Virus record (IMG/VR): IMGVR_UViG_2786546475_000019
Coordinates: 974-64,973 of that record
Strand: one strand, 5' to 3'
DNA: 64,000 nucleotides
DNA from: a virus
The notes beneath the pieces were generated by a model. That model ran no database searches, was not told where the DNA came from, and was given only the letters and a program-made list of their open reading frames with translations. Both the position numbers and the translations under genes were made by a program. Within the stretch, counting starts at the first letter, position 1. The number at the start of each line of letters is the position of its first letter. Of the stretch, positions 2,613 through 59,359 are shown one piece after another.

Positions 2613-2676
2613 TTCTGAATTTTTTCAGAATTAGGGGCAATCCGTCCTGCCCTCATTCGTATCTATAGGGAAGTCC
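2613..2676 (+). promoter_or_regulatory. promoter-like module A1: palindrome TTCTGAA-N4-TTCAGAA, then TTTTCA-N6-GGGGCAATCC-N11-CATTCGTATCTATAGGGAAGTCC
   Basis: one of three copies with identical geometry (others at 59266-59322 + and 58653-58708 -); 12 nt before ATG 2688. Confidence 0.6.
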
Positions 2677-8408: not shown

Positions 8409-8430
8409 AACGCAAAACAAAAGAGAACAA

Positions 8431-12961: not shown

Positions 12962-13218
12962 ATCCAGTAGCTCACACCCTTCGATTGATATCAGTGACAG
13001 CAACAGCCGAAACTCTTAAGAGCCAAAACGATTTGTTCCACGGAGCTTCGGAAATTCGAGTGACCCCTGCTGCTGATATTACAATGAAGGATTTGCAGAC
13101 GGGAGCTTCTGTTACATTAACTTCCGGCCAAACACATTCCCTACCTGCCGCTAACGTTGCGACAGAATTTCAATTCACCACAAGTGGAGCCGAAGTGTTC
13201 CAAGTTTACTCCGCATGA
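12952..13218 (+). CDS. hypothetical protein
   Basis: 88-aa ORF immediately upstream of the terminase. Confidence 0.45.
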   Translation: MSMNPVAHTLRLISVTATAETLKSQNDLFHGASEIRVTPAADITMKDLQTGASVTLTSGQTHSLPAANVATEFQFTTSGAEVFQVYSA

Positions 13219-14894
13219 TAACTGAACTGTTTGACCATTTAGCCGAAAGCTTAACCCACAGCACAATCACAAATTGTGCTCAGTGGGCGTTAGAGCGTAG
13301 GGTTATGGGACGACCGTTCGAGGGCCCATGGAATTTTAAATTATTTCCGTGGTTATACACTCCGCACGTTTCCAACCATCCATTTCGGTTGGCATTGAAA
13401 GGTGCTCAATTAGGGTTTACAGAGTGGGCAATTAACGAAGCTTTTTACGCTATTGATCATAAGCGTTCAAATGTTTTATATTGTCTGCCTACAAAGGGCA
13501 ACGCGGGTGACTTTTCAACCACCCGCTTCAACCCTGCCCTAGCCCTTAGCCCCTATATCGCGAACTTGTTCTCTGGTGCAGATAATGTATCATTGAAGAC
13601 GGCAGGTTCTCGGTCACTGTATATTAGGGGTTCAAAGGCTAGAGCAGACTTGAAGTCTTTGCCAATTACTGTTTTGATACTTGACGAAATTGATGAAATG
13701 CCTAAAGAGTCAATCTCTCTAGCTCATCATCGTCTTGATGGACAAGCCGTAGGTTCAACTTCATTGCTTGAATTATCAACTCCTACTCTACCTGATATGG
13801 GGATTGACGCTGAGTACAAATTATCAAACCAGATGATTTACGTATTCCAGTGCCCAGGATGTAGCAAGTATATTGACTTGCAATACCCTAGGAATTTTAA
13901 GCTAACTGCTACGCGAATGAACGATCCTGACATTGAAAAGAGTTATTTCTTTTGTCACGAGTGTGATTACGTAATAGACCACGAAGCCAAACCAGAGATT
14001 TTTAAATGCAAGGAAATGGGCGGCACGGGTCACTACAGACCGCAAGTAAAATATGCTGACCGAGAAGGGTACTATGTAAATCAAATGTACTCCTCGGCCA
14101 AAGGCGGAACGCCAATTGAGTGGGCTAAAGCCGTAATACTTGCAGAAACAAATCCGTCAAAAGAACAAGAGCTTTGGAACTCTAAAGTTGGTAAAGGCCA
14201 TGCAACAGAGAACGCAAAGCTAGAAGAAGGAGTCTTAGAGCAGCATAAGCGAAACTACACTATTGCCGACTACGAACTCCATGATAATCGTATTAGAACA
14301 ATTGGGTGTGATGTTGGAGCAGTTTGCGATTTAGTGTGCTTAGAGTGGACGTGGGAGTCTGATCTTGGCCTGCCTAATGATAGATACCGTCCTCGACTGG
14401 TAGGTGAATTATCATTGCCCCGATCTTCGGAAGATGCCCGAGCCATTTTGGACTACTTCCGAAAGATGAACGCTCATATGTTTGTTATGGATTCCGAACC
14501 TGAAAGTCGTTTTGCTCGACAAGTCATCAATTTGCTAGGCGACTATGGGTTCATGTGTGATTATGGGAAAGGATACAAAGCAGGACAAGTTAATGTTAAA
14601 GAAGAAGATGGCTTTATCACTGTAAATCGAACTACATGGTTGGATATAACTATGTCTCGATTCACAGCTGCTAACAAAGACGGAACAGATTTACCTAGCG
14701 ACATAAGCGAACGATTCCTTCAACATATGACAGCCCCTGCTAGATATTACAAAGATGATGCAAATGGCGACCCCATAGCTATTTACAAAAATGAAAAAGC
14801 GGATCACTTGTTTCATGCGTGGACCTACGCTGAGATAGGATTGCCTCTTTACTTCCTAACAGCCGAAGGCGAAGATATCGATGTTATCTTTTAG
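13215..14894 (+). CDS. terL: terminase large subunit, GpA-like
   Basis: LKGAQLGFTEWAINEAFYAIDH...LYCLPTKGNAGDFSTTRFNPAL and zinc-ribbon FQCPGCSKYIDL resemble the lambda GpA family; followed by a portal-sized ORF. Confidence 0.75.
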   Translation: MITELFDHLAESLTHSTITNCAQWALERRVMGRPFEGPWNFKLFPWLYTPHVSNHPFRLALKGAQLGFTEWAINEAFYAIDHKRSNVLYCLPTKGNAGDFSTTRFNPALALSPYIANLFSGADNVSLKTAGSRSLYIRGSKARADLKSLPITVLILDEIDEMPKESISLAHHRLDGQAVGSTSLLELSTPTLPDMGIDAEYKLSNQMIYVFQCPGCSKYIDLQYPRNFKLTATRMNDPDIEKSYFFCHECDYVIDHEAKPEIFKCKEMGGTGHYRPQVKYADREGYYVNQMYSSAKGGTPIEWAKAVILAETNPSKEQELWNSKVGKGHATENAKLEEGVLEQHKRNYTIADYELHDNRIRTIGCDVGAVCDLVCLEWTWESDLGLPNDRYRPRLVGELSLPRSSEDARAILDYFRKMNAHMFVMDSEPESRFARQVINLLGDYGFMCDYGKGYKAGQVNVKEEDGFITVNRTTWLDITMSRFTAANKDGTDLPSDISERFLQHMTAPARYYKDDANGDPIAIYKNEKADHLFHAWTYAEIGLPLYFLTAEGEDIDVIF

Positions 14895-17757: not shown

Positions 17758-19122
17758 ATGGCTTCGCCTAACGATGCGTTGATTCCTGAGCTATGGGCCC
17801 AGGAAGCTATTAACTTGATGTGGGAAAATTTCCTTTTCGGGCAATTGTTCCACACCGAATTCAAAAACCAAATTGCTGTTGCTGGCGACGTGGTTAACAC
17901 CTCTCGACCTGTTCGGATGCGTGCTCACCGTAAGAACAGCGACATTCAAACTATCAATGACCAAACCGCACGTTCAACTAATATCAAAGTTGAACTGAAC
18001 CAGCAAATTTACGTTTCGTTCTTGCTGGGTTCACGGGACCGGTCTTTGAGTTTTGTTGACTTGACAAGCAAGTATCTTGTCGAAGCGATGCAAGCTCAAA
18101 TCCGAATGATCGATCGCTCGATTGCTGGACACATTGCATTGTTCTTGGCCAACGCAGTTGGTACTTCAGGAACTATCAGTGCGTCTAACGCTTACAACCA
18201 ACTCACGTTGGCTCGTAAGAAACTGAACGATTACAATGTTCCTGAGCCAAACCGTCGGTTTGTCTTTGGCAATCGTTCGGATATCGCGTTCTTGCAAGAT
18301 GATCGCTTTATCAATAGCGATTACAACGGCATGGGCGGTACAGCGGTTCGCGAAGCGTATCTTGGTCGAACTCTCGGCTTTGATATGTTCCGTTCGCCAA
18401 ACTTGCCTATGGCTGAGAACTGCCCTCAACAGTCGCCAACGACTGTTGACGGAGCGGCAGCAGCAGGAGCTACGACTATTGACGTAGCAACTGGTACAGC
18501 CCCAGCTGTGAACTCGTACATCGAGATCGCAGGGGAAGGTTCTCCAAACTTGGTCACGGGAGTTTCAACTGATACTCTCACCTTGAAGCGTCCTCTGCGT
18601 AACGCCGTTGCTGACGGTGCCGCAGTCAAGATTTTCTCTCAAGGTGCTGTGAATAACGCAGCAGGCCACGATGCTGGTGATAACTTTGACGCCAAGGCAA
18701 ACGGTTACGCTGCTAACTGGGCCGAGGACATTGCTGTTGACGGTAACGTCCCAGCAGTTGGTCAAATTATCTCGTTTGCTTCGCATGACGCCGAGTACGT
18801 TGTTGTGAATCTCGAAGGTAGCAACATTCTTTTGGATCGCCCATTGGAAGCTGCAATCGATGACAATGACACTGTTGCTTTGGCTGGTGACTTCGAATTG
18901 AACTTCGCGTTTAACCCGAAAGCTATCGGTATCATTTCCCGTCCATTGGCTGTGGAGATGGAAGGAACTGGCGTCCGTTCAGCAATCGCCGAAGGTTATG
19001 GCTTTGGTGTTCGCGTGGATATCGGTTTTGACGGGACCAAGCAAGCACAACGTGTGACCATCAGCTCGTTGCTCGGTCTCAAGCAGTTGGATGAAGAACG
19101 CGGAGTACCTCTCCTTGCGTAA
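17758..19122 (+). CDS. major capsid protein
   Basis: 454 aa, GGAG RBS, directly after the scaffold; Ala/Gly/Val-rich. Confidence 0.7.
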   Translation: MASPNDALIPELWAQEAINLMWENFLFGQLFHTEFKNQIAVAGDVVNTSRPVRMRAHRKNSDIQTINDQTARSTNIKVELNQQIYVSFLLGSRDRSLSFVDLTSKYLVEAMQAQIRMIDRSIAGHIALFLANAVGTSGTISASNAYNQLTLARKKLNDYNVPEPNRRFVFGNRSDIAFLQDDRFINSDYNGMGGTAVREAYLGRTLGFDMFRSPNLPMAENCPQQSPTTVDGAAAAGATTIDVATGTAPAVNSYIEIAGEGSPNLVTGVSTDTLTLKRPLRNAVADGAAVKIFSQGAVNNAAGHDAGDNFDAKANGYAANWAEDIAVDGNVPAVGQIISFASHDAEYVVVNLEGSNILLDRPLEAAIDDNDTVALAGDFELNFAFNPKAIGIISRPLAVEMEGTGVRSAIAEGYGFGVRVDIGFDGTKQAQRVTISSLLGLKQLDEERGVPLLA

Positions 19123-21641: not shown

Positions 21642-24600
21642 ATGGCCAAGCAATACGATATTGATACCCAACCTGCGATTAAAAGTCTCGCTGATTTAAC
21701 ATCAATGGTAGGGAAGCTGACTAAAAAGTCAGAAACTTATAATGATAGGCAACGTACCGCGAACCGAGCACTTAAAACTGCTGGGGATCGCCTTGTTACG
21801 TTTAAAGATAATGTCAAGCACGCTGCTTCCGGTGTTCGATCTTTGAACACGGCTCTTGACAAAATGGACACAACCAATGATAATTTCAACAAATTAAATA
21901 CGGCTGCTGGTGTTTTAGGCCGAAGACTAGATAGCTTAGAGACTAAAGCCGGAACTACTATCATTCGGTTGGGGGAATTACGCACAGCCGCAGGTCGAGC
22001 AGCAGGGGCTTTGGAGCGTGAAAAGAAAATCATTGGAGAGTTAAACAGCTCTCTAAGTCAAATGAACCAACGCTTCAAGCGTATGGTTCAAATCTTTGAT
22101 GATAAGAACCAAAAGTTGAATCTGCAACAAAGGGCAATGCTGGCAGACGCTAGAGCCATGGGCCAAGGTACTAAGTCTGCTAACCTGCTCTCTCGTACTT
22201 TGCGACGATTGAGAGATATTGTCGGAACGTTCGCAGGATATGGAGCTTTGTTCCTTATCACTAACGAGCTACGTCAATCCATTGGTTCCGCAAAAGAATA
22301 CGCTAAAGCCATTTCCGAGATTAGAACAATCTCGGACCGAGCTGCAGTCTCCAGTCAAGAGTGGACCAATAAGCTTTTAGAACAGTCTAATGCGTATGGC
22401 TTTACGTTTCTGGATCAAGCCGAAGCTGCGTATCAATCTCTTTCGAATCAGGTCACCAACGCTGGTGATACTTTTGCTTTCTTGCGGTCAGAAGCTGCTT
22501 TGTCTATGGTAGCAGTTTCTTCGTTGGAAGCTGCAACTAACTCAACAACTGCTACATTGAACGCGTTTGGAGACTCGGCAGGAGCTGCTAGTCGCGTGAA
22601 CGCAATTCTGTTTAAGACGGTTGAAGAAGGTCGTATCCGCTTGGAAGACATGGCGAATACAATTGGTCGTGTTTCGATTCTATCATCCCAACTTAACATT
22701 AGCTTTACGGAACAACAAGCTGCTTTGACTCAACTAACAAAGCTTGGTGTACGGACCGAAGAAGCTATGACATTGTTGCGTAACGTCGAACTTAAATTGT
22801 TGAAGCCGTCGGAACGAATGTCTGAGCTGTTCAAAGAGTGGGGCTTTACCTCAGGTCAAGCAGCAGTTGAGACGTTAGGATTGGCTGGCGTCATGGAGAA
22901 GTTTGTCGAAACTGCTAAACAAAATGGCGACGTAGCCGCAGAGCTGGGTGATATTTTCAATCGCTTGAGGGCTATTGTCGGTGTCGCTGGTTTGACTCAA
23001 GCCTCATTAACTGAGGAAATGGAGAAGTTTGAGAACGCGTCGGAAAGTGCTTTAGGTGCTTTCTTGGAGCGAATTAACTCAATTGATACTAGAGCTAATC
23101 GCCAAATTCAACAGTTTAAGAATACGTTTGTTTCGGAGTTTGGGGCTCCTATTCTTAAAGTTCTTGTTGAGACCGCCGAAGGTATGGGCGGCATGGAAGC
23201 TGCAACAATTCAATTGATTCGCAACTTGAAACAGCTAGTGACAATTGGCGGAACTGTAGCCACGGCCCTTGGCGTCTTGGCCACAGGTCGTGGAGTTTAC
23301 GCCCAAGTTACGTACTGGACTAACCAGTACCGGATTGCCACTCTAGCAAATACAGCGGCTTTGTCGGCGGAACAAGTGGCATTAGTTCAAGCGTCAAGGG
23401 CTCGGATTGCCTACGCTTTGACTTCGCTAGGTGTGGCGGGGGGCGTAGCGTTAATTGCATATCAAATATATCAAGCCACTCAAGCTCACGAAGACTACGC
23501 GTCAAGTGTAAGACAAGCTGCTGCTGAGTTCCGTAACAACTTTGGACCGGACGGGCTTAAAGCTTATGAAACGCTTAATGTCGAAATCAACAACACTACC
23601 GAAGCAGCTCTAAAGCAAACACGAGCAATGCGTAGGGCCTTTGGAGAAAGTGCCGCCGCTATTACTCGCAACTTGAACGCGTTAGAAGCGGCAAATGATA
23701 GTACCATTAACGCACTAGACGAATCTATCTCCGCCTACGTTGATAAGATGGAGTCTAAGTTCCAGAAGATTCTTCGGGAAAGTGCCAAGATTTCAGCCAA
23801 GCTAGCTAATAATATTGCTCAAGGTACAGCGGCCACACAACAAGTTGATCTTAGCTTACGTGTGCGTCGACAAGTATCTAATATCAACCAAGGTGCTGAC
23901 CCTTTAATGGGGTACAAAAAGCTGTTCAAGCAGCTTGAGGCTGAGGCTTTTGCAGCTCTTGATAAAGGAGATAAACAACGAGCAGATAATCTGTTTGCAG
24001 AAGTTGACAAGCTAGTTTCTGAGTATCGCAAACGATACACTAATATTAAAGCTCCGACGCTCCCTATTCCAACTATTCCTGCGAACGCTACGCCGATGAT
24101 GCGTAGGCGATATCGAGGATACATTGAAAACATCAAAAAGCAAAATGCTGAGATTAAGAAAGCAACTGCTGATGATAAAGCGGAACTTAACCGAAAATTT
24201 GAAGAAGGTCAAATTAAGTTTTATCAACGACGTAATGATAAAATCAAAGAATACATTGAACTTCTTAAGAAACAAAAAGCTGCCGAGGATAAAGCTCGTG
24301 AAGTAATGACTCAAAAGTTTAAAACTTTTGAAAATATTTTCGAACAAGTTGATGAAGCTAAGACGGGAGACGAAGTTCGATCTCTTACTAATAAATTCAA
24401 AACAGCTTCCGCTGGTGTTCTGGACCCAACGGAACGTCTTAAGTTTATTCGGGACTTGAACCAGAAAGCCCTCGCTTTAGACGAGAAAGCAGAGATTGAG
24501 CGTAAACGAGTTCTGGTTGCACGGGCCAAAGAAACCCAAGAGGCGTACTTAAAGACTCGCGACGAATTGATAAAACGTCAAGAAGAAGCTCGACGTAAGC

Positions 24601-25241
24601 TCAATGAGTCCTTGACTATTAACTTAACAGACGGGGAGTTTGCAGATCGGTTTGCTAATAAAGATAAAGCGTTACAAACCATAATTAAAGACGCCCAAAA
24701 ACAAATTAGGCGATCCAAAGCTAGGTTAACTCCGGGTTGGCTTGTAAAGGAAGACAGCATTAGAGCGGAGAAGTTGACTCTGCGAGAAGCTGAACAGACT
24801 TTAAAAAGGGCTATGGCTCAACAAAAAACTCTTAAAGATCTTTATCGCCAAGTTAAGGACTTTAACCTCAAGCCTACTGATAAAAAAGCCGAAGCTTTGA
24901 TGGATACTTTAGGTAACCTTCCAGGTTTCGAAAAGTTTACTAATAAGATTGGGCAAGCAGCTGATGAAGTGAACCGGTTACGTAACCTTTCGCTCCAACC
25001 ATTTGATTTGAAAATTGACGCTGACGCCAGTTTGGAAACAATTCGAAAATTGCAGAAAAATATAGACATGTTGCGAGAAGGGTTGGAGTTGACACCAATT
25101 AATTTTGCTCCGCTTCAACAACCTACTACTCAAAACAACATTACGTTCAACGTATCTCCGGGCCAAGGACCAGATGCTTTGGTGGCGGACGTTACTGATA
25201 AAATTTACGATGCCTTTAGACGAGGATTGATAAACGTATGA
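21642..25241 (+). CDS. tail tape measure protein
   Basis: 1199 aa, long coiled-coil/helical regions with a central hydrophobic Gly/Ala-rich segment; canonical position. Confidence 0.85.
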   Translation: MAKQYDIDTQPAIKSLADLTSMVGKLTKKSETYNDRQRTANRALKTAGDRLVTFKDNVKHAASGVRSLNTALDKMDTTNDNFNKLNTAAGVLGRRLDSLETKAGTTIIRLGELRTAAGRAAGALEREKKIIGELNSSLSQMNQRFKRMVQIFDDKNQKLNLQQRAMLADARAMGQGTKSANLLSRTLRRLRDIVGTFAGYGALFLITNELRQSIGSAKEYAKAISEIRTISDRAAVSSQEWTNKLLEQSNAYGFTFLDQAEAAYQSLSNQVTNAGDTFAFLRSEAALSMVAVSSLEAATNSTTATLNAFGDSAGAASRVNAILFKTVEEGRIRLEDMANTIGRVSILSSQLNISFTEQQAALTQLTKLGVRTEEAMTLLRNVELKLLKPSERMSELFKEWGFTSGQAAVETLGLAGVMEKFVETAKQNGDVAAELGDIFNRLRAIVGVAGLTQASLTEEMEKFENASESALGAFLERINSIDTRANRQIQQFKNTFVSEFGAPILKVLVETAEGMGGMEAATIQLIRNLKQLVTIGGTVATALGVLATGRGVYAQVTYWTNQYRIATLANTAALSAEQVALVQASRARIAYALTSLGVAGGVALIAYQIYQATQAHEDYASSVRQAAAEFRNNFGPDGLKAYETLNVEINNTTEAALKQTRAMRRAFGESAAAITRNLNALEAANDSTINALDESISAYVDKMESKFQKILRESAKISAKLANNIAQGTAATQQVDLSLRVRRQVSNINQGADPLMGYKKLFKQLEAEAFAALDKGDKQRADNLFAEVDKLVSEYRKRYTNIKAPTLPIPTIPANATPMMRRRYRGYIENIKKQNAEIKKATADDKAELNRKFEEGQIKFYQRRNDKIKEYIELLKKQKAAEDKAREVMTQKFKTFENIFEQVDEAKTGDEVRSLTNKFKTASAGVLDPTERLKFIRDLNQKALALDEKAEIERKRVLVARAKETQEAYLKTRDELIKRQEEARRKLNESLTINLTDGEFADRFANKDKALQTIIKDAQKQIRRSKARLTPGWLVKEDSIRAEKLTLREAEQTLKRAMAQQKTLKDLYRQVKDFNLKPTDKKAEALMDTLGNLPGFEKFTNKIGQAADEVNRLRNLSLQPFDLKIDADASLETIRKLQKNIDMLREGLELTPINFAPLQQPTTQNNITFNVSPGQGPDALVADVTDKIYDAFRRGLINV

Positions 25242-25921: not shown

Positions 25922-26231
25922 TATTGATGGAATTGACGTTCCGATGCCAAAACGAGGGAACTCGTTTGAAGATACAACGCAAATTATCATCCAGCAAACT
26001 GAGGATGATAGTGTCCACACGCAAATCAAAGATGGTGAAATTATTCGCCAGATGCAGTGTGAAGTTCCAAATGATGTTTACGACCAAATAAAAACTAAGA
26101 GAGGCACAGAAGTAGCTTTAATCTTTGACGACTATTCGGAAAATGTCACAATGATGTTTGACGCATCCCCTAACTTCCAACGCACTCTTTGGAATGTGAG
26201 TTTTACTTTCTATGAGAAATATAGCAGTTAA
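25914..26231 (+). CDS. hypothetical tail protein
   Basis: 105-aa ORF, overlapping neighbours. Confidence 0.5.
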   Translation: MFSIDGIDVPMPKRGNSFEDTTQIIIQQTEDDSVHTQIKDGEIIRQMQCEVPNDVYDQIKTKRGTEVALIFDDYSENVTMMFDASPNFQRTLWNVSFTFYEKYSS

Positions 26232-28899
26232 CCAATACGGCCATTCTTCAAAGATTGAAATTGATTTGAATGGCATGTTATACGAACCTCTTAAAATTGG
26301 TACACTGTCTCAAACCAGTGTAAACGCCACCCGTGATGTTGCAACTATTGAAGTTGTACTTCACGGTACTATTGATATTGCTTTTGAAGCTCCGTGTGCT
26401 GTAAAGTATAACGGAGAAATTTTATTTAAGGGCATTGTTGATACTCCGATTCGGCAAGAACGAGGCGTAACCAAATTCCGAGTTATTCAACAAGTGGAAG
26501 CAGAGGAAGTTGGCTTTGCTCCAGAAGAAAGTGAACTTGACTTGATAAATGAGTTCACTCCGTGGCCTATGGGTTTCGGAAGTCCGGTATACGCTAAGAC
26601 CGTCAAGGTCCGTAAACAACCTACAACCAGCACTGAGACTAACATCTGTTTGATAAATCTTGAGCTAGTTGAACGACGCGACCAGCTTCTAGACGCAATA
26701 AATCGTGGGTTATTTATCATTAACTATTGGCGAACTGCTGCGGATAAGCAAGTCAATCCTAATGCTGAAACAACATTAAACCAATACATTGCAGTTCTCA
26801 CTACAGGAGAAGCTCAAAATATCCTCTGGGCTGAAGCTCGTAATTTGCTTCAACAACGTCAAGATGATCTGAACAAACATCCAAACGACATTGATACGCT
26901 AACTGAATTTTACAATCAGCAAGATGAAGTAGCTTCTTTAAGTGATACTATTAACGCTTTGCTTCAAAGCAAAGTAACGCTAGAGGACCATATACAGTTC
27001 CTACGCTTCATGGCTCGTATGAAGCGATATGCAGTTGATAACATGCTTAAGATTTGGAAGCAGCTTCGCATATGGACTTACGAGTATTTTGAGCTTGCGT
27101 TACAAATCTGTGAACAAGAACGGTGTGCTCAACCTGTTCATTACGTTGAAGACTCTAGGGACTTTCCTCAGAACACTGATGTTGATGTTCGGATCAATGA
27201 CTTCATTTTTACTGTCCAGTTCGACGGTAAAAAGATGACAGGTATCAGTGGCCCGAACCCTGAACAAGAGAACCTAACAGTTAGCCCACATCGAGAGGAC
27301 GATGCTCCGTGTTCCGAGTACGAGTTTTTCAACGGTGTCAACGTATTTTACACTCCCGCTATCGGCCTAGAAAATACTTGGTGTTTGGTCAAAGACACCA
27401 GCGACAATTATCACGTTATCTACGTCGAGAAGCAAGAAGATGATAAGTGCACGTTTCGAGTTGTTCCATGGTCCGGGGAGCGTTTTAAACAAGCACAGTC
27501 TCAATCTCTTGAAGCGGCAACTTTACAGTTAGCCGACGCTCCAATTTATGATATTTTAAGAGACGGAGTAAACTCGTCTCTTTACCAAAGTCAAGCGTTT
27601 AATCCTAATACATGGCTTGACCGTAAATCAGCTGACTACATTCAAGCTATCGCTCCGTTGTCAAATCCCGGACCAGACGTTCGTCGAAACATTGCTATGC
27701 TGGTCCACTTAAAGAAGTTTGATAACCTTAACGGTTTAGTGATTCCGGACCCTCAGCCTAGGGACATTTACACTATCATTGGGGAAGATATTGCTAGCAT
27801 TGAGCAAGTAGCCTCCCGTCCGTTACCTTCTTGGTATGACTATAATTTGATACCAGAAGAACTTCCTGAATTAGAAAACTGGGAAGCTCCTCCCGGCACC
27901 GAAGTCACAATGGACACTTGTGAAATTTACGCCATTAACACAATTCAATCTCAAGTTCATGGAGTTTATGCTTATTTCACGGATCGAGATAAGAAAAGTT
28001 TACGGGCCCTTCCTGAAAGTTATTATGAGATTGAGACAGAGGACTTAGGCACGTTACGTCCAACTCTTTTAAAGCTTCGGCGACCTTTGCCAAGTAATTG
28101 GGATAAAGAGATTTACGCCACCTACACGTCCAAAGTTGGACCAAACGTGGCAGATATCTTACGATACATTATCAATAAGTACACTGATAAAACACCAAAT
28201 TCGTCTTTTGATACTGTCAAAGAGTACCTCGTAAACTACCCTGCTAACTTTGTAGTGTATGATCGTCCTGACGCTCTTTCGCTGATAAATCGTATTTGTC
28301 GCGAAGCTCGCTGTGCGGTCACGTTAAGAGACGACCAGTTCCACTTGACTTACCTTTCCCGAGTTCCAGGCTCTGACGGCATTGGATTCACTTCTAGCAC
28401 TGTGTTGAAGAAATCACGCTCAGTAAGAGTTTCTAAAGTTGAAGATATTATCACTCGGTACAATGTTACGTGGACGCCGAACGGACTGCCCATTGAACCT
28501 GAGAAGCTTGTCTTGCGACATAATGTTGGCAAGTACGGGTTAAAAGATAATGACTACGATTTCCTGATTTATGACCAGTATGACTTGGTGCATAAAACAA
28601 TTAACTTCTGGTTGATTCGCAACTCAGAAATTTATCAATTTTGGAAAGGCAATTTAACAATTGGTGGCATCAACTATCAATTGCTTGATGAGCTGTCTAA
28701 TGGCGTTGGAACGGGTAGAGTACAGTCTTGGGAATACGCTCATGATACTCGGACCGTTACTGTTGAAGTAAACACTGGAATTCCTTACAACGAAGACGCG
28801 GTAAATCAATATTACTGGCCGTCTCAAATTGATGCTGAACTTATCTGGCCAAATGAAGCTGACACCACTGGAGTAACAGGAACAATCGAATGCCCGTAG
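26212..28899 (+). CDS. large distal tail / tail-tip protein
   Basis: 895 aa, downstream of the tape measure. Confidence 0.55.
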   Translation: MRNIAVNQYGHSSKIEIDLNGMLYEPLKIGTLSQTSVNATRDVATIEVVLHGTIDIAFEAPCAVKYNGEILFKGIVDTPIRQERGVTKFRVIQQVEAEEVGFAPEESELDLINEFTPWPMGFGSPVYAKTVKVRKQPTTSTETNICLINLELVERRDQLLDAINRGLFIINYWRTAADKQVNPNAETTLNQYIAVLTTGEAQNILWAEARNLLQQRQDDLNKHPNDIDTLTEFYNQQDEVASLSDTINALLQSKVTLEDHIQFLRFMARMKRYAVDNMLKIWKQLRIWTYEYFELALQICEQERCAQPVHYVEDSRDFPQNTDVDVRINDFIFTVQFDGKKMTGISGPNPEQENLTVSPHREDDAPCSEYEFFNGVNVFYTPAIGLENTWCLVKDTSDNYHVIYVEKQEDDKCTFRVVPWSGERFKQAQSQSLEAATLQLADAPIYDILRDGVNSSLYQSQAFNPNTWLDRKSADYIQAIAPLSNPGPDVRRNIAMLVHLKKFDNLNGLVIPDPQPRDIYTIIGEDIASIEQVASRPLPSWYDYNLIPEELPELENWEAPPGTEVTMDTCEIYAINTIQSQVHGVYAYFTDRDKKSLRALPESYYEIETEDLGTLRPTLLKLRRPLPSNWDKEIYATYTSKVGPNVADILRYIINKYTDKTPNSSFDTVKEYLVNYPANFVVYDRPDALSLINRICREARCAVTLRDDQFHLTYLSRVPGSDGIGFTSSTVLKKSRSVRVSKVEDIITRYNVTWTPNGLPIEPEKLVLRHNVGKYGLKDNDYDFLIYDQYDLVHKTINFWLIRNSEIYQFWKGNLTIGGINYQLLDELSNGVGTGRVQSWEYAHDTRTVTVEVNTGIPYNEDAVNQYYWPSQIDAELIWPNEADTTGVTGTIECP

Positions 28900-32255: not shown

Positions 32256-33403
32256 TGCCTTTTCTATTTCGTAACGGCCGCTTAGTTTATCAAGACGGCA
32301 AAGCAGTAGTTAGCGACGATACTACAGAGTGCGTCTGTTGTGATCAAATTGGAGAAGATCCTTGTACGTGTGCCGGGCTCCCTGATGCTATTTACGTCTA
32401 CGCTTACGACCGTTGGGCTTTGCAATATGATAGCTTTAGACCCATGTGGACGTGGGATGAATTCTTGTTTGAGAGGCAAACTGATACAACGTGGGAGAGC
32501 GTGGAGCTTGAAACTCTTAGGTGTGACGGAAGTAACTACTTAACGTGGGACGGCGTTGGATTGTTGCAAGGCCCGGGAAATAGTAATCTTGTTTGTGGGT
32601 GTGATCTTTTTGCAAGTCGTCAACCTTATTATGGGTATTATCGAATAGAGGAGTGCCACCCTGATTTCCAATCTTTTAACGCAACAAATCCTACTAGACC
32701 AATTCCTTGTCCTATTGAGAATCAAAATGATTTCGGGTATTCTATCAGTCGCACACTTAGCGGCTTATTCTTGGGATTTGAAGAATCGTATCTAGGGGGA
32801 GGGACTGGATACGATGGCGGCGAGAGCGGAGCCGGTAAACAATACGGCTACGGTCCATGGCAACGAACCTTGGGAAATGTTCAACGACCTGCGTTCCGGG
32901 ACCCATGTTTAGATTATCCTCCGTGGTTAGGAGCTACAGCTTACGGACCTTCGGCCTATGGAGCAGGGAGCATTGATTTTGACGAGTGTTACTCTCTTGA
33001 GTATTTAGAAGGTCCTTCTGAGACGTACCCTCAAGATTGGCAATATACTTGGGCTTTTGGTTGGAGTCAAGCGGAAGCTCCTAACATTGCCAAGTTTCTA
33101 AATTTGATAATTAAAGGCGATGGTACGCTATCTGTTATCTTCCACCGAGGCGTGCCTAATACAACTCACGCGTACGGCAAACCAATTATGTCGCCCCTGA
33201 ATCCTTTAGAAATTTGGGGAGGTACTGCTACAGGATACGACTTCAATGATAGCTCTCCACAAACTTTTGATATTGAAGTAAAGCGACATGGAATATATGT
33301 CACGCCTTTACCGATGACATACACTTTTACGATTCTTCAACAGAATCCGACAATTGATACTCCAGGCCCAACATCGATTTACACAGGGAGTTTTGAAGCA
33401 TGA
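32255..33403 (+). CDS. hypothetical protein (Cys-rich N-terminus)
   Basis: start moved to ATG 32255 (TAATG overlap); the track start at 32243 is TTG. Confidence 0.5.
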   Translation: MPFLFRNGRLVYQDGKAVVSDDTTECVCCDQIGEDPCTCAGLPDAIYVYAYDRWALQYDSFRPMWTWDEFLFERQTDTTWESVELETLRCDGSNYLTWDGVGLLQGPGNSNLVCGCDLFASRQPYYGYYRIEECHPDFQSFNATNPTRPIPCPIENQNDFGYSISRTLSGLFLGFEESYLGGGTGYDGGESGAGKQYGYGPWQRTLGNVQRPAFRDPCLDYPPWLGATAYGPSAYGAGSIDFDECYSLEYLEGPSETYPQDWQYTWAFGWSQAEAPNIAKFLNLIIKGDGTLSVIFHRGVPNTTHAYGKPIMSPLNPLEIWGGTATGYDFNDSSPQTFDIEVKRHGIYVTPLPMTYTFTILQQNPTIDTPGPTSIYTGSFEA

Positions 33404-33612
33404 GCCAAAGCCAACTTGAAGCTTACGCCAGACAACGTAAGTTTAGGCCCAAGATGGAAAATGTTCAAATTTGTGAACAGTGCGACCACTTAATACGTGA
33501 TCGCTACTGTTCCAAATTTGGCAAGTGTCCTGACGCTCAAAAAGATTTCTTTAAAGCCCTTGAACGAAGTAAATGTCCTTTAGAGAAATTTCCGTCGCAG
33601 CTCAGCGAATAG
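33400..33612 (+). CDS. small Cys-rich protein, last gene of the rightward arm
   Basis: 70 aa, CEQCDH...C...C; 3' end overlaps the convergent gene by 33 nt. Confidence 0.45.
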   Translation: MSQSQLEAYARQRKFRPKMENVQICEQCDHLIRDRYCSKFGKCPDAQKDFFKALERSKCPLEKFPSQLSE

Positions 33613-33996
33613 AATTCTAACTTGCTTAGGAGTTAACTCTAACAAACGCCCGATTTCCGAATACGTATAGTATTGAAGTCGTAAACTTACAGCCCATCGC
33701 TCCTCGACAGTTAGCCTATCTAGGTCAAACTGATCGAGGAATTCTTCTGCACTTCTTGATAATTCTTCAATATCGCCTAACGCTTCGGTATCATTGTTTG
33801 TTTGCATTTTCTTTCGACGACGGTAAGCGTCAATACCTCTCGACCGTAGTAAGGTTCTTAAGTGTGAGATGAATTTCTTTTCCTCAACTAGCTCATGATA
33901 ATTCTCCCACGCTTGTAAAAATTCCAAAGATAGCGAGCAGTCAAATTTAGTTTCAAACTCTCGCAACAAGTAAACATAATCGTCGATCCTTCGCAT
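33580..33996 (-). CDS. sigma-70 region-4-like HTH protein (minimal ECF/LuxR-type)
   Basis: LTVEERWAVSLRLQYYTYSEIGRLLELTPKQVRILFAELRRKF matches the region 4.2 pattern. Confidence 0.5.
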   Translation of the reverse strand: MRRIDDYVYLLREFETKFDCSLSLEFLQAWENYHELVEEKKFISHLRTLLRSRGIDAYRRRKKMQTNNDTEALGDIEELSRSAEEFLDQFDLDRLTVEERWAVSLRLQYYTYSEIGRLLELTPKQVRILFAELRRKFL

Positions 33997-37585: not shown

Positions 37586-38236
37586 TTAAACCATATTCAA
37601 AGTAATTGGAGGTTTGTCGCTTTTTAAAAGTTTAGCTAGCTTTTCTAACGCTCGCTTTTCAAGTTGACGAACTCTTTCTCGCGAGATATTAAGAGTTTCC
37701 CCAATAGTCTTAAGAGGAATCCCTTGGGCTCGTAGCCTCAAAACTAAAGCATCTCGACTATTTAACTCAAGAAAAGCTTTTTCTAGAGCAATAAGCTCCT
37801 CTTGCCATTCTATCAAATCCCTATCAAGACATTCTAAAGGTGTAACAGGGTTATTAAATAGCCCGTGTAAGGTTTGAAACATTGGAGCACGAGCTATAGC
37901 AGCTTTAGCTCTGTCAAGATGAGCTGGATTTGGAGATACTTTAATTAACTCCACCTTGGTTTTCATGTAAGTTATCATTCGTTGTTTCACCCACGGAGTG
38001 GCGTAAGTTGAAAACTGATAACCTTTACTAGGGTCAAATTTTTTGACCGCCTGACATAACCCACTCATTCCTTCTTGAATTAAATCGTCTAAATCAAGCT
38101 TAGAATTTTTCTTGGCAAAAGACACCGCTATCTTGATAACCAATCCTTGATTATCTAACACTAACCGATTGAGTGCTTCATCAGCTTCCTTTCTAGCAGA
38201 ATGATATTTTTGTAATAACTCGTCATTAGTATCCAC
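37586..38236 (-). CDS. sigma-70 family RNA polymerase sigma factor (group-3-like)
   Basis: region 2 DDLIQEGMSGLCQAVKKFDPSKGYQFSTYATPWVKQRM; region 4.2 TIGETLNISRERVRQLEKRALEKL. Confidence 0.85.
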   Translation of the reverse strand: MDTNDELLQKYHSARKEADEALNRLVLDNQGLVIKIAVSFAKKNSKLDLDDLIQEGMSGLCQAVKKFDPSKGYQFSTYATPWVKQRMITYMKTKVELIKVSPNPAHLDRAKAAIARAPMFQTLHGLFNNPVTPLECLDRDLIEWQEELIALEKAFLELNSRDALVLRLRAQGIPLKTIGETLNISRERVRQLEKRALEKLAKLLKSDKPPITLNMV

Positions 38237-38239
38237 AGT

Positions 38240-38425
38240 TCACTCACAATCTAAAGGGAATTGTTCATGTATTTCCAAACTCACAACCAACTTCCCACAC
38301 TTAGGACAACGAACCGACTGTTTTCTTTTCTTGAGCCGATGCTCAAGCTCCTGTTTTGTTGACCGTTGTTCAGCGGGAAAAGTTGTTTTGACTACCACAG
38401 GCTCCGGGGTTTCATTTACGTCCAT
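38240..38425 (-). CDS. small zinc-ribbon protein
   Basis: 61 aa, CPKCGK motif. Confidence 0.45.
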   Translation of the reverse strand: MDVNETPEPVVVKTTFPAEQRSTKQELEHRLKKRKQSVRCPKCGKLVVSLEIHEQFPLDCE

Positions 38426-38805
38426 AAGTCAACCAAATGTTCAGGAACAGGTTGTAGCTCTCCGTTACGTTCAATCAAAACGCTTCCAGGGCAAACTGTG
38501 TAAACTCTATCACCATAGTCAAGTATAGCATGTTCACTAACGGAACAGTGACAAACCGGACAGAGCCACTCGCCATCAATGTTAGGGTGACGAAAATGTC
38601 TCAACGAGCTGTCGTCCTTCAACGTGTTAAAATGTTTCACGAACCCGCCAAGCTTGATCTCTGCTACGGCTTTCGGGTAATTGAGTTCGAGTAGCTCATC
38701 TTGTGTCAGTGTCACGACCTGACCACGTTTAAATGGTCCACGGTCCGCGAAGCGACCATTGAAATAATGAGCACCTGCCGCTGATAGTTTTACTTTGAAA
38801 TTCAT
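38416..38805 (-). CDS. hypothetical protein (CPVCHC motif)
   Basis: 129-aa ORF, overlapping neighbours. Confidence 0.5.
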   Translation of the reverse strand: MNFKVKLSAAGAHYFNGRFADRGPFKRGQVVTLTQDELLELNYPKAVAEIKLGGFVKHFNTLKDDSSLRHFRHPNIDGEWLCPVCHCSVSEHAILDYGDRVYTVCPGSVLIERNGELQPVPEHLVDLWT

Positions 38806-43911: not shown

Positions 43912-44387
43912 TCCGGCTCAGTAGTTCCAACGTATCCCATACCTTTGCCAAGAATCTTGTCTTGATAATAATACCATCGGTATGAGAAGATACAGTCTTC
44001 GAAATCTCCGGCCAAGCCTTTATAATATCCAGGCATAGCCAAGTTTGGAGGAGTAAGAGGGCCACGTCGTATGTAACACGGAGATTGATAAAGATACCCA
44101 ACCCGGTTCCATACTTCATGTAAAGCTAACCCTCTCTTATCCCGCTCCTTCAACAACGCTATCATATGCTTCAAAGTCCATTGATAATTTGAATCAGTGG
44201 AACGAACCCATTGAGTTGACGGGTGATTTGCGAAGCATGGTTTACACATTCCTTGACGCCAAAGTCCAACTTCGTCATGTGCCGTTGATAACATTTGGGC
44301 ACACTCAATCGGCATTTTTGTTAAATGGTCCGTGGCCATGTAGCTAGCTGCAAGGACCGGGTCCATATCAAGGAAGAAAACATTCAC
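43881..44387 (-). CDS. conserved phage protein of unknown function
   Basis: N-terminal FFLDMDPVLAASYMATDHLTKMPIECAQMLSTAH recalls a widespread phage/virus family I cannot name with confidence. Confidence 0.5.
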   Translation of the reverse strand: MNVFFLDMDPVLAASYMATDHLTKMPIECAQMLSTAHDEVGLWRQGMCKPCFANHPSTQWVRSTDSNYQWTLKHMIALLKERDKRGLALHEVWNRVGYLYQSPCYIRRGPLTPPNLAMPGYYKGLAGDFEDCIFSYRWYYYQDKILGKGMGYVGTTEPEWLLHLKGKL

Positions 44388-44770
44388 GCCCCAAGTCCAA
44401 GCGATTTGATGGAAGCCCTTTTGAGTGCTGTCAAGGTAACAACACGTCCAAGTAGCTTGGAAAGTGTTTCTTCGAAGTTATCAAGTTGCTCCGATAATTT
44501 GTATTCGAAGCCGTTCAAAAGTATCACTTCTTCCAAGTTCTCAGAAACCCAAGAATTTAAGTCTTGGTCTTTCACAAGATACTTACCGTCTTGAATCGTT
44601 AACTTGCCATTGATAGTTGGGCCTTTCAATTCGTCTCGCCAAATTTTCACGTTTTCAGGAGCGGTTATGTTAATTGAAGCAGCTCCTGATCCTGCATCAA
44701 AGATTGTTACCCGAACGTCGTTCCCAATTGTAAATGATTGCGACGCCCAGCGTTTAAGAGTTAACGCCAT
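44384..44770 (-). CDS. hypothetical protein
   Basis: 128-aa ORF. Confidence 0.5.
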   Translation of the reverse strand: MALTLKRWASQSFTIGNDVRVTIFDAGSGAASINITAPENVKIWRDELKGPTINGKLTIQDGKYLVKDQDLNSWVSENLEEVILLNGFEYKLSEQLDNFEETLSKLLGRVVTLTALKRASIKSLGLGA

Positions 44771-49508: not shown

Positions 49509-49527
49509 GATATTCCTTTCTAAACAA

Positions 49528-49578
49528 GTAAACAACGGTCCACGCTCCATGATACTTGGAGCGTGGTACGTTGGCTAC
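49528..49578 (-). promoter_or_regulatory. intergenic stem-loop cassette B1
   Basis: - strand GTAGCCAACGTACC-ACGCTCCA-AGTATCA-TGGAGCGT-GGACCGTTGTTTAC; starts 9 nt after the upstream stop. Confidence 0.7.
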
Positions 49579-49586
49579 TCTTACCG

Positions 49587-51284: not shown

Positions 51285-51629
51285 TCAGTCTCCTCTTATC
51301 AATTGATAAATTTCTTTGTAAGTATGTACTGGCATATTATACTTGTCCGCTATATCCTGCCAGTTCTCTTCCCACCAGCTAAAAGAATGACACTGACCCC
51401 CAACTTTCAACACTCCAAAGTCTTGGTTGACTTCTACTTTGCGGCCGTGTAAAATTCCGAGTGTTATCAGTTTGCCGTAGCCGTAGCCGTAGCCGTAGCC
51501 GTAGCCGTCGCCGTCGCCGTAGCCGTCGCCGTAGCCGTAGCCGTAGCCGTAGCCGTCGCCGTAGCCGTAGCCGGTCCCGTAGCCGGTCCCGTAGCCGGTC
51601 CCGTAGCCGTCGCCGTGGTTACTTAACAT
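51285..51629 (-). CDS. protein with an N-terminal Gly-Tyr(-Asp/Thr) repeat region
   Basis: GDGYGTGYGTGYGTGYGYGDGYGYGYGYGDGYGDGDGYGYGYGYGYG followed by a ~60-aa non-repetitive domain. Confidence 0.55.
   Translation of the reverse strand: MLSNHGDGYGTGYGTGYGTGYGYGDGYGYGYGYGDGYGDGDGYGYGYGYGYGKLITLGILHGRKVEVNQDFGVLKVGGQCHSFSWWEENWQDIADKYNMPVHTYKEIYQLIRGD
51474..51616. repeat. hexanucleotide microsatellite (GCCGTA/GCCGTC/GCCGGTCCCGTA variants) encoding the GY repeats
   Basis: about 143 nt of near-perfect 6-nt periodicity. Confidence 0.9.
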
Positions 51630-51640
51630 TTGATAGTTCC

Positions 51641-51730
51641 TTATAAATGATCAACTTTGGTCTTTGCTTCACGCGGACCGATGTACGGTTCCAACGTAAA
51701 TAAGTCATTGATATTTTCACATAGTTTCAT
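51641..51730 (-). CDS. tiny coupled ORF (29 aa)
   Basis: ATGA overlap with the TraR/DksA stop; preceded by AACAGGAGAGCAAG, nearly identical to the RBS block of 50190..50981. Confidence 0.35.
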   Translation of the reverse strand: MKLCENINDLFTLEPYIGPREAKTKVDHL

Positions 51731-51933
51731 CTTGCTCTCCTGTTTGCTCGCTTAGCGAGTCGTTGAGTTTCAGGATCGTCCGGAAGTATCACTAGCGATC
51801 CTGCGGTCTTATGGCCGTACACCATGTACCCTGTAGCACGCTCCGTGGTGCTACAGGTTGCACACGTCATTGTGTGCGGAAGTACCTCTAAGCGTTCACT
51901 ATCAATTTGTGTTTTGCAGTTTATGCAGTTCAC
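51727..51933 (-). CDS. TraR/DksA-family C4 zinc-finger protein
   Basis: CINCKTQIDSERLEVLPHTMTCATC. Confidence 0.55.
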   Translation of the reverse strand: MNCINCKTQIDSERLEVLPHTMTCATCSTTERATGYMVYGHKTAGSLVILPDDPETQRLAKRANRRAR

Positions 51934-53062: not shown

Positions 53063-53087
53063 GATAATCCTTTCAAGTGAGAAAAAA

Positions 53088-53134
53088 GTAAACAACGGTC
53101 CCTGCACCTCACGAGTGCATGGTACGTTGGCTAC
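53088..53134 (-). promoter_or_regulatory. intergenic stem-loop cassette B2
   Basis: - strand GTAGCCAACGTACC-ATGCAC-TCGTGAG-GTGCAG-GGACCGTTGTTTAC, then TTTTTTCTCACTTGAAAGGATTATCATG. Confidence 0.7.
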
Positions 53135-53144
53135 TGGCTTGCTA

Positions 53145-53570: not shown

Positions 53571-53591
53571 GATAATCCTTTCAAGAAATTA

Positions 53592-53638
53592 GTAAACAAC
53601 GGTCCATGCACCTCATGGGTGCACGGTACGTCAGCTAC
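53592..53638 (-). promoter_or_regulatory. intergenic stem-loop cassette B3
   Basis: - strand GTAGCTGACGTACC-GTGCACC-CATGA-GGTGCAT-GGACCGTTGTTTAC. Confidence 0.7.
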
Positions 53639-53645
53639 CAACTAC

Positions 53646-54014: not shown

Positions 54015-54038
54015 GATAATCCTTTCAAGTGAGAAACA

Positions 54039-54085
54039 GTAAACAACGGTCCGGGCTACCCGTGGGCAGCACGGTACGTTGGCTA
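54039..54085 (-). promoter_or_regulatory. intergenic stem-loop cassette B4
   Basis: - strand TAGCCAACGTACC-GTGCTGCCCACGGGTAGCCC-GGACCGTTGTTTAC. Confidence 0.7.
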
Positions 54086-54093
54086 TTGATAGA

Positions 54094-54113: not shown

Positions 54114-54168
54114 ATTAAATCCAGATTGTCAAAGATCAAAATTATCATTTGTGTCCCGCCACTGGCGG

Positions 54169-54284
54169 AAATGATATGATAGCTTACAGACCTACGGTCA
54201 ATCTATTCTATACTTAATATCGGCAATTGGGAAGTAAGAAAATAGATTATTTTTGAAAATAATCAAAACTTTATCATATCATTT
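54169..54284. promoter_or_regulatory. operator pair AAATGATATGATA (54169-54181) / TATCATATCATTT (54272-54284) bracketing the palindrome GATTATTTT-TG-AAAATAATC (54245-54264)
   Basis: exact reverse-complement 13-mers; the identical pair occurs at 59227/59347. Confidence 0.7.
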
Positions 54285-58652: not shown

Positions 58653-58708
58653 GACTTCACCCTATAGCTACGAGTGGCGGGATATCGGATTGCCCCACAA
58701 AATGAAAA
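58653..58708 (-). promoter_or_regulatory. promoter-like module A3
   Basis: - strand TTTTCA-TTTTGT-GGGGCAATCC-GATATCCCGCC-ACTCGTAGCTATAGGGTGAAGTC, about 70 nt upstream of ATG 58586. Confidence 0.6.
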
Positions 58709-58793
58709 TAAATCGAGTTAATGGAAATTGATACGAAACTTTAATGACGTTTCCAGTGCAGCGTTATCATTATTCTCTCACGTACGCGAAGCC

Positions 58794-58932: not shown

Positions 58933-59017
58933 GAGCCAAATTTTACGTTAAATTGGTATGTTTCGACGGGAATTGATACCGTCTCACTGCTCTCCTCCCG
59001 AACCTTGCATCTTGGCT

Positions 59018-59058
59018 CACGCTACACGTATCACGCTACACGTATCACGCTACACGTA
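59018..59058 (+). repeat. tandem 14-mer CACGCTACACGTAT x2.9
   Basis: units at 59018, 59032 and 59046; followed by ACGT/CGCGTG-rich repeats up to 59225. Confidence 0.9.
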
Positions 59059-59226: not shown

Positions 59227-59359
59227 AAATGATATGATACATGGTTTTCAAAATACTTGAAAATATTTTCAAAATACGGGGCAATCCTGCCCGGTTTTAT
59301 TCGTAGCTATAGGGGGAAAGTAGACTGTTTTACTTTCCAAAACGACTATCATATCATTT
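59227..59359. promoter_or_regulatory. operator pair AAATGATATGATA (59227-59239) / TATCATATCATTT (59347-59359) bracketing module A2
   Basis: exact 13-mers identical to the 54169/54272 pair. Confidence 0.7.
59257..59322 (+). promoter_or_regulatory. promoter-like module A2: palindrome TTGAAAATATTTTCAA, then TTTTCA-N6-GGGGCAATCC-N11-TATTCGTAGCTATAGGGGGAAAGT
   Basis: same 29-nt spacing from GGGG to CTATAGGG as A1 and A3. Confidence 0.6.

Follow-up and report, generated by a model that had tools for sequence, protein, structure and literature searches.

Two sigma-70 family proteins and a three-copy promoter-like element suggest a sigma factor cascade in an uncultured marine tailed phage

Phage-encoded sigma factors and cascades of several such factors are textbook subjects (T4, SPO1, phiEco32, 7-11), so the principle considered here is not new. 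The present study deals with a stretch of 64,000 nucleotides (nt) from the IMG/VR virus record IMGVR_UViG_2786546475_000019 (positions 974 to 64,973 of that record). This stretch, called the window, is most of the approximately 72-kilobase (kb) genome of an uncultured marine tailed phage, and all positions below are counted from its first letter. Its long leftward gene block is an early, or DNA-metabolism, block that encodes two unrelated sigma-70 family proteins, of 216 amino acids (aa; 37586..38236, minus strand) and 138 aa (33580..33996, minus strand), and also a 68-aa zinc-ribbon protein (51727..51933, minus strand). An earlier reading of the bare letters, made without database searches (the sequence-only reading), had reported the three open reading frames (ORFs) with these coordinates and lengths, and they were found there. 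It had also united them into a set for the takeover of transcription. The two sigma family proteins of this set stand, while its TraR protein and its operon driven by one of the stem-loop modules described below do not, and the genes are not clustered. Judging by its sequence, the phage seems to be an ordinary, though poorly related, case of a virus redirecting the host RNA polymerase by sigma factors of its own.

In Salmonella phage 7-11, the phage sigma factor recognises the bipartite promoter GTAAtg-16-aCTA. In that phage, read-through from sigma-70 promoters is believed to reach the gene of this factor first, with positive feedback amplifying it afterwards, and such cascade logic has been proposed and partly demonstrated (PMC8948821). 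Like the ECF-like late sigma factor gp47 of phage 7-11 (and that of Cronobacter phage GAP52), the system studied here would combine a small phage sigma factor and the host core enzyme with a few bipartite promoters having 16-nt spacers, and in both cases the gene of the factor is found far into a long block. The GAP52 sigma factor appears among the structural matches of the 138-aa protein model. No sequence relationship to the 7-11 system is detectable, and, unlike in 7-11, the candidate promoters are only the three that head gene blocks, with the consensus GCAAT-N16-CGTA, and a second, primary-type sigma factor is present. The gp36 and gp79 proteins of phage phiEco32 offer another parallel, a divergent phage sigma factor redirecting the host core enzyme; in that phage, a small partner displaces sigma-70 (PMC12276001, PMC8948821). 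However, gp36 has no homology to region 4 and reads the single element tAATGTAtA (PMC8948821), whereas the 138-aa protein has a clear sigma-4 domain and the candidate element is bipartite. No homologue of phiEco32 gp79 was recognised in this phage.

Several sigma family proteins per genome are also encountered in phages SPO1 and SP10 (gp28, gp33/34, sporulation-like sigma), where some are essential for middle and late transcription (PMC9429907). The present phage differs from these in lineage and in host realm, as it comes from a marine metagenome, its terminase is 22-24% identical to those of Herelleviridae, and its pair of factors consists of a truncated primary-type protein and a protein of the extracytoplasmic function (ECF) type. 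ECF sigma factors are reduced to sigma-2 and sigma-4, with fewer than 50 residues linking the two; their promoters carry AAC at -35 and CGT at -10, and positive autoregulation is frequent (PMC8103513). The promoters of the ECF factor sigma-H have the form GGAAT-N17-19-GTT (PMC10012870). The 138-aa protein resembles ECF group 4 (SigW, SigH/SigR) in its probable make-up of sigma-2, a short linker and sigma-4, and its candidate promoter follows the AAC/AAT...CGT scheme (PMC8103513, PMC10012870). It differs from this group in being 20-35 residues shorter than its nearest matches, in scoring below the family cut-off, in having no adjoining anti-sigma gene and in being encoded by a phage.

The reading preferred here, to which we would give about an even chance, is a cascade with a start by the host enzyme, the production of two phage sigma factors, and then the action of the 138-aa factor on three copies of an element designated B and of the 216-aa factor on a class of sigma-70-like promoters. 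The host holoenzyme would begin at sigma-70-like sites (TTGACC, TTGAAA, TTTACT or TTTTCA, then TATCAT) at 54.2 and 59.3 kb. Transcription leftwards from the 54.2-kb site would pass through ORFans punctuated by hairpins, the zinc-finger gene, the gene of the 216-aa sigma factor and, lastly, the gene of the 138-aa sigma factor. The 138-aa ECF-like factor would then bring the core enzyme to the three B elements, which would switch on the replication and structural blocks, and the copy B2 would feed back on the sigma genes themselves. The 216-aa factor would most likely act on the sigma-70-like class, replacing the host primary sigma factor or competing with it. The domain assignments and motif statistics given below were computed, and from them we infer every link between a sigma factor and a promoter in this cascade. 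The sequence-only reading had pointed to a bootstrapping problem, should the phage promoters need a phage sigma factor. This problem is eased: all three genes lie downstream of sigma-70-like sites at 54.2 kb, which would offer a host-dependent start, the solution proposed for phage 7-11 (PMC8948821). A bolder version of the cascade appears rather unlikely to us: here the 138-aa protein would be a fully functional sigma factor, among the smallest, driving alone three promoters of 55 base pairs (bp) and, with them, nearly the whole 72-kb genome, and the truncated primary-type factor would replace that of the host, the two making up a compact orthogonal pair.

The B element is 55 nt long and has the consensus TATTTTCA-N6-GGGGCAATCC-N13-TCGTAkCTATAGGG, with the core GCAAT-N16-CGTA. 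It occurs exactly three times in the ~72-kb genome, where no copy is expected by chance, and a position weight matrix gives the three copies 76-78 bits, against -11 for the next best site. Each copy precedes one of the long co-directional blocks, at a distance of 14-70 nt from the leading gene. B1 (2620..2674, plus strand), an exact match to the pattern with a matrix score of 77.6 bits, heads the block 2688->33612; B2 (58656..58710, minus strand) heads the leftward block 58592->33580, which holds all three genes under study; and B3 (59264..59318, plus strand) heads the rightward replication block. When the upstream regions of all genes were searched for enriched dyads and k-mers, B was the only bipartite or upstream-enriched motif returned. 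The idea that the 216-aa sigma factor has a further promoter class specific to the phage was rejected, since this search gave nothing besides B. The sequence GTTGGAAC is over-represented (9 copies vs 2.4 expected), with no shared downstream -10. In B, none of the -10 candidates has a TTGACA-like hexamer suitably far upstream. It seems that B, by its geometry GCAAT-N16-CGTA, is a candidate promoter-like element of ECF-like kind, and we suppose that the 138-aa sigma factor would read it. An AAT triplet at -35 has a precedent, as sigma-H uses GGAAT-N17-19-GTT.

The gene of the 138-aa protein is the last one of the leftward block, at the very end of the leftward arm, as had been noticed from the letters. 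It lies 24.7 kb downstream of B2, which heads its block; no B-like site was found near the gene, and AGGAG stands 7 nt ahead of its ATG. The gene has a convergent 33-nt overlap (33580-33612) with the last rightward gene (33400-33612), which encodes a 70-aa protein with several cysteines, and the rightward and leftward arms meet there without a terminator between them. The 138-aa protein appears to consist of a sigma-2-like N-terminal half, a short linker and sigma-4. Model TIGR02937 matches residues 26-136 at model positions 36-160 of 165 (E = 5.6e-8), and the 12 further NCBIfam matches are all to sigma-factor models, mostly of the ECF type, with two SigI models among them. The protein also matches phrog_1740 (E = 4.6e-6), and the Pfam search yielded r4_2 (E = 5.9e-4) and r2 (E = 0.057). 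A word-based search of 5.8 billion proteins returned only the protein itself; an exhaustive HMMER search (1.84 billion representatives) returned three ordinary ECF sigma factors of 160-172 aa (E = 1.7e-4 to 6.7e-4), the matches covering residues 15-136. The alignment of these four sequences, A1, is collinear from region 2.1 to region 4.2. When the N-terminal 71 residues were searched alone, four of the five matches were sigma models, at sigma-2 positions (E = 0.003-0.07), and the C-terminal 67 residues alone matched TIGR02937 positions 110-160. The description of this protein as having region 4 only is not sustained by the ECF alignment and the sigma-2 matches; of the two roles suggested for it, a minimal ECF-like factor fits better than an appropriator.

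The AlphaFold2 model of the 138-aa protein made from the single sequence was poor, with a predicted local distance difference test (pLDDT) score of 57. With alignment A1, the pLDDT was 69.6, the last 50 residues reached 80-90, and the added ECF sequences improved the sigma-4 half only. Foldseek placed 54-59 columns of the model onto the sigma-4 of SigA, SigD and sigma-E with a probability of 0.99, a template modelling (TM) score of 0.64-0.70 (target) and a root-mean-square deviation of about 2 Å; as the output lacks query positions, we take the matched stretch to be the predicted C-terminal domain. The viral structure library contains many phage proteins of 120-190 aa labelled as ECF sigma factors, so the small size is not unprecedented among predictions. 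No cognate anti-sigma gene adjoins the 138-aa gene, the upstream neighbour of which encodes an RNase_T-type exonuclease; a co-transcribed anti-sigma factor is no longer a strict defining trait of ECF sigma factors (PMC8103513). The protein can be assigned, with moderate confidence, to divergent, minimal ECF-type sigma factors; the confidence is no higher since the matches of the sigma-2 half are weak.

The 216-aa protein can be assigned firmly to the sigma-70 family on its sequence. It scores 65.2 bits with Sigma70_r2 (PF04542; Pfam cut-off 24) and 47.9 bits with Sigma70_r4 (PF04545; cut-off 24.1), which bears out the clear regions 2 and 4.2 seen by the sequence-only reading. It also matches TIGR02937 (E = 1.7e-32) and the large phage sigma family phrog_351 (E = 1.9e-43); its scores with the RpoD, RpoS, RpoH and SigF models are far below the cut-offs. 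The protein includes sigma-2 (2.1-2.4), the region 3.0 helix, a linker and sigma-4 (4.1-4.2). Region 1.2 (PF00140) and r3 (PF04539), both present in most homologues, gave no Pfam match. In alignment A2 with its homologues, the protein begins just before region 2.1, and so has no region 1.2; its domain 3 is shortened by about 50 residues, retaining the region 3.0 helix but not the region 3.1 helix-turn-helix (HTH). Both sigma-2 and sigma-4 of the sigma-70 family are therefore present, and region 1.2 and the complete sigma-3 of group 1/2 factors are missing; "full", as the protein had been called, is too strong a word.

The motifs DLIQEG, FSTYAxxW and SRERVRQ are invariant in alignment A2, and the 216-aa sigma factor retains DLIQEG, FSTYATPWVKQ and SRERVRQLE. 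These motifs correspond to residues Y425, Y430, W434, Q437 and R584, E585, R588, Q589 of E. coli sigma-70; W433, T440 and R441 are replaced. SRERVRQ holds the residues by which primary sigma factors read a -35 element of the TTGACA type, and FSTYATPWVKQ holds most of those that melt and recognise the -10. We infer a preference for a TTGACA-like -35 and for a -10 that contains TA but is changed at its upstream edge. The closest solved structures are RpoS and SigA, which match in two separate stretches. Besides identical copies, the nearest homologue is a 214-aa protein with 40% identity; it comes from a 2030-bp contig of SRR18680872, has a truncated domain 3 too, and its gene is located directly downstream of a GcrA-family gene. 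The remaining homologues share 29-36% identity and are all cellular (primary-like sigma factors or RpoH), and the best tblastn matches include SigF/G-like genes of Bacillus phages, with about 33% identity. With the 138-aa protein, the 216-aa protein shares only a weak similarity in region 4.2 and is otherwise unrelated to it. The GTG start of its gene lies 3 nt past the stop of an upstream 61-aa ORF, which suggests that the two are translationally coupled. This ORF (CPKC) is one of two Cys-rich ORFs just upstream of the sigma gene (38240-38805, minus strand), the other encoding 129 aa (CPVCHC...CPG). Family searches with the small genes flanking the sigma gene gave no informative match; the 61-aa and 129-aa proteins are possible candidates for sigma partners.

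The roles of the two proteins may also be exchanged or shared, with the 216-aa protein as the main middle and late sigma factor reading B and the 138-aa protein as an accessory (a sigma-4 co-activator, a sigma mimic or a beta-flap appropriator), and we judge this to be unlikely. It agrees with the fact that only the 216-aa protein, which falls into the large phage family phrog_351, has sigma domains above threshold, and with the weak matches of the sigma-2 half of the 138-aa protein, the confident structural matches of which concern sigma-4 only. The phage phiEco32 supplies a precedent of a small phage partner, gp79, working with a phage sigma factor (PMC12276001). However, the 216-aa factor has a primary-type R-E-R-x-R-Q helix, yet B contains no TTGACA-like hexamer suitably spaced from a TA-containing -10. 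Besides, the 138-aa protein aligns with ECF sigma factors from region 2.1 to region 4.2, and its N-terminal half matches sigma-2 positions when taken alone.

The candidate sites for the host enzyme contain a 13-mer, AAATGATATGATA / TATCATATCATTT, found in four exact copies (54169-54181, 54272-54284, 59227-59239 and 59347-59359). The copies make two outward-facing pairs (54.17/54.28 and 59.23/59.35 kb), with 103 and 120 nt between the members, and the second pair brackets B3. Each 13-mer contains two overlapping TATCAT hexamers, and one of these is preceded, at 17-19 nt, by TTGACC, TTGAAA, TTTACT or TTTTCA. The candidate promoter at 54169..54201 (minus strand; TTGACC, 14- or 19-nt spacer, TATCATATCATTT) points leftwards from a position upstream of all three genes, and that at 59227..59263 (minus strand; TTTTCA-18-TATCAT) points leftwards, toward B2 and the primase gene. 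Those at 59329..59359 (plus strand; TTTACT-17-TATCAT) and at 54253..54284 (plus strand; TTGAAA-18-TATCAT) point rightwards, the latter being antisense to the leftward block. In the region 46-64 kb, 43 matches of the sigma-70 type were counted against 23.4 +/- 6.2 expected, and scans with the sigma-70 consensus of 1-14 kb and 33-47 kb revealed no enrichment. The four 13-mer sites can be considered candidate promoters of the host type, possibly operators too. The start of the ParB/HTH_ParB gene (59360) directly adjoins one of the 13-mer copies. A 16-mer with a perfect TTGACA, TTTGATCTTTGACAAT, occurs twice in large non-coding regions (708-723, plus strand; 54125-54140, minus strand), in both cases pointing to downstream genes, and neither copy has a recognisable -10 at 16-18 nt.

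It is likewise unlikely, in our opinion, that the host holoenzyme, with its primary or an ECF sigma factor and perhaps an unfamiliar consensus, reads all promoters including B, the phage sigma factors serving as auxiliary genes to reprogram host expression and not to drive phage genes. Bacillus phages show that this division is conceivable, as their lytic growth does not require the sporulation-like sigma genes, which act on programmes of the host (PMC9429907). The position of B at the head of every major block, including the one encoding the sigma factors, would be explained most simply if a host factor read it. Against this, B is not known to fit any sigma-70, sigma-54, sigma-32 or sigma-28 consensus. 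In GTDB (185,579 species genomes, 596 Gb), B with its flanks is absent: the two matches to the bare pattern are at the level of chance for 19 specified bases, and flanking conservation is absent in both. The sigma genes are located amid replication and nucleotide-metabolism genes and do not occupy a moron-like position with a promoter and terminator of their own.

The four A modules of the window (54028-54092, 53582-53643, 53078-53140 and 49518-49585, minus strand; repeat families D2-D4 and D11) had been taken for promoters, and module A3 for the one driving the operon with the three genes. Their conserved flanks, TAGCCAACG and CGTTGTTTAC, pair together around a variable upper stem. The RNAalifold consensus has 20 pairs and -23.9 kcal/mol, with compensatory change in 4 pairs. 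For three or more of the four copies, a ribosome-binding site follows the end of the stem-loop at a distance of 10-15 nt. Promoter function was rejected because of the conserved stem-loop of about 20 bp, the compensatory pairs and the placement 5' of ribosome-binding sites, and for these same reasons the modules are read as RNA elements. They look like inter-cistronic processing sites, attenuators or other RNA-level elements of the early operon, and the idea of an A3-driven operon was abandoned. At 44384-44770 (minus strand) there is a gene for a 128-aa protein, roughly two times as long as a typical CsrA, in which Pfam recognises the CsrA domain (1e-9). The A modules contain GGA both in GGACCG and in the Shine-Dalgarno sequence AAGGAT, about 32 nt apart, a spacing that would suit a CsrA dimer.

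Several observations weigh against the cascade with the 138-aa factor acting on B. The TIGR02937 score of this protein, 32.6 bits, is below the curated cut-off of 42.9, and its sigma-2 half, weakly matched by sequence, was poorly modelled by AlphaFold2. B carries AAT instead of AAC at -35, and its conservation extends through the presumed start site, which is unusual in bacterial sigma promoters. The spacers of the four sigma-70-like sites are inconsistent (14/19, 17, 18 and 18), their identical 13-mer could be an operator instead, and they were scored as sites of the sigma-70 type, from which the promoter consensus of the host may differ. A simple scan flagged the A hairpins as terminator-like, so they could block or limit read-through to the sigma genes. 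In addition, no diverged relative of the phage in which the conservation of the pairing might be followed was found in IMG/VR (searched with the two sigma factors, the DHH protein and the B pattern), in JGI metagenomes (B pattern or 138-aa protein) or in GTDB genomes, and the other copies of the phage genome are 99.6% identical.

The 68-aa protein had been regarded as a TraR/DksA protein acting in the secondary channel of RNA polymerase. In TraR, an N-terminal helix with the DxxDxA motif reaches the active site and is critical, and the zinc domain and C-terminal helix give other contacts; C4 zinc-finger proteins do not all act like DksA (PMC9239242). Like TraR, lambda Orf73 and DksA, the 68-aa protein, small and phage-borne, has a C4 finger with the same spacing, CxxC-N17-CxxC at residues 3-27 (C3, C6, C24 and C27), which is followed by a 41-residue tail with a basic end. 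It scores 20.3 bits with the Pfam model zf-dksA_traR (cut-off 24.9) and matches phrog_54 (E = 5.7e-4), TIGR02419 (E = 4.3e-4) and, below threshold, DksA, TraR and yteA models; the only relative found is a strain variant, 93% identical. Its GTG start overlaps the previous stop codon (GTGA), AAGGAG stands 5 nt upstream, and 68 aa is the longest possible ORF, bounded by an upstream stop codon. Fusion to the upstream ORF, which would give a DksA-like architecture, was rejected on account of the different frames, the strong Shine-Dalgarno sequence and the start/stop overlap. No DxxDxA was found in the 68 residues, and no N-terminal helix precedes the finger.

Unlike in TraR and DksA, the finger of the 68-aa protein stands at the extreme N-terminus, and the mechanism of the family cannot apply as described (PMC9239242). 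With the first cysteine of the finger already at residue 3 and no possible upstream extension of the ORF, a TraR-type helix is impossible, and with neither room for this helix nor a DxxDxA motif, the action in the secondary channel is unsupported. It is improbable that the protein modulates RNA polymerase in a TraR/DksA-like manner with its C-terminal tail in place of the N-terminal helix: the exact CxxC-N17-CxxC spacing, the weak family matches, all of them to DksA, TraR and yteA models, and the contact of the globular zinc domain of TraR with the secondary-channel rim (PMC9239242) would agree with this, but every family score is below its cut-off and the protein is without the helix and the DxxDxA motif described as critical (PMC9239242). 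From its sequence, it should rather be regarded as a zinc ribbon of unknown partner than as a secondary-channel effector of the TraR type. About 100 nt downstream of its gene, a 114-aa protein consisting largely of Gly-Tyr and Gly-Asp repeats is encoded (51285-51629, minus strand); about 24 copies of GCCGTA encode the repeats, and a 29-codon ORF (51641-51730) lies between the two genes.

By profiles, no domain of a phage RNA polymerase was found in any large protein. Some of the large proteins have an assignment (primase, terminase, portal, capsid, tape measure, PolA), and all the others are ORFans, in which no DxDGD motif was found. Apparently without an RNA polymerase of its own, the phage would have to use the host core enzyme. 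B ends in CTATAGGG, and T7-type promoters end likewise. A T7-type phage polymerase reading B was nevertheless rejected on the profiles and the DxDGD search, which leaves room for a highly divergent enzyme.

The genome was assembled repeatedly from Tara Oceans samples; ERR594309, ERR594388 and ERR599159 are the accessions for the stations that yielded the contig. Other contigs of it, of 72,328 bp and 71,449 bp, were recovered, and one NCBI copy sits in a metagenome-assembled genome labelled 'Acidobacteria bacterium'. The map closes at about 72.1 kb: a second assembly runs past position 64000, where it contains a ParB-domain gene and genes of a family-A DNA polymerase and a ligase, and rejoins the gene at window position 856. 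The megablast search with 20 kb against 50,697 phage records found no near relative, and the terminase is only 22-24% identical to those of the nearest cultured phages. Profile assignment identified the terminase large subunit (13215-14894), the major head protein (17758-19122) and the tape measure (21642-25241), and portal and scaffold genes are likewise encoded; these genes indicate a tailed phage.

The genes are organised in three long co-directional blocks, 2688->33612 (plus strand), 58592->33580 (minus strand) and 59360->about 71.3 kb (plus strand), and two small separate units. The first block contains ORFans followed by terminase, capsid and tail genes, and the third, the replication block from 59360, contains genes for ParB, helicase, PolA and ligase, as read from the second assembly. 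All three genes under study lie within the dense leftward block of 25 kb, at 34, 38 and 52 kb; they are scattered, with unrelated genes between them, and do not form a physical module. Searches of the window found no transfer RNA genes and no Rfam families, and the region 33-47 kb showed no strong terminator.

Five large ORFans (453, 543, 616, 403 and 895 aa; 856-2217, 3586-7058, 8320-9531 and 26212-28899) have no Pfam or PHROG match. The gene of the 453-aa ORFan stands apart as a unit, having an upstream region of its own and a strong terminator, and a Glu-Ala repeat closes the protein. The gene of a subtilase S8 protease (11554-12492) shares the block with large ORFans. The non-coding regions hold tandem arrays (59017-59058, 2273-2334, 2437-2513 and 1-87). 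Three copies of TCACGCTACACGTA, iteron-like in appearance, lie between B2 and B3 (59017-59058); a 20-bp unit occurs three times directly after a strong terminator (2232-2256); and GGACC-rich 7- and 14-bp arrays are located upstream of B1 and at the start of the window. GGACC/GGTCC also recurs in many hairpin stems.

For this phage, two of the three earlier annotations, those of the 138-aa and 68-aa proteins, have been corrected, and the promoters once seen in the A modules are replaced by a testable pair, the three-copy B element of ECF geometry and the 138-aa ECF-like sigma factor. If this pairing is true, the small sigma factor and its promoter, which is long and unique, could serve neatly as an orthogonal part for expression, and would also help to show how small a sigma factor can become. 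Verification of the pairing would provide the first regulatory map for a marine phage lineage without cultured or database relatives.

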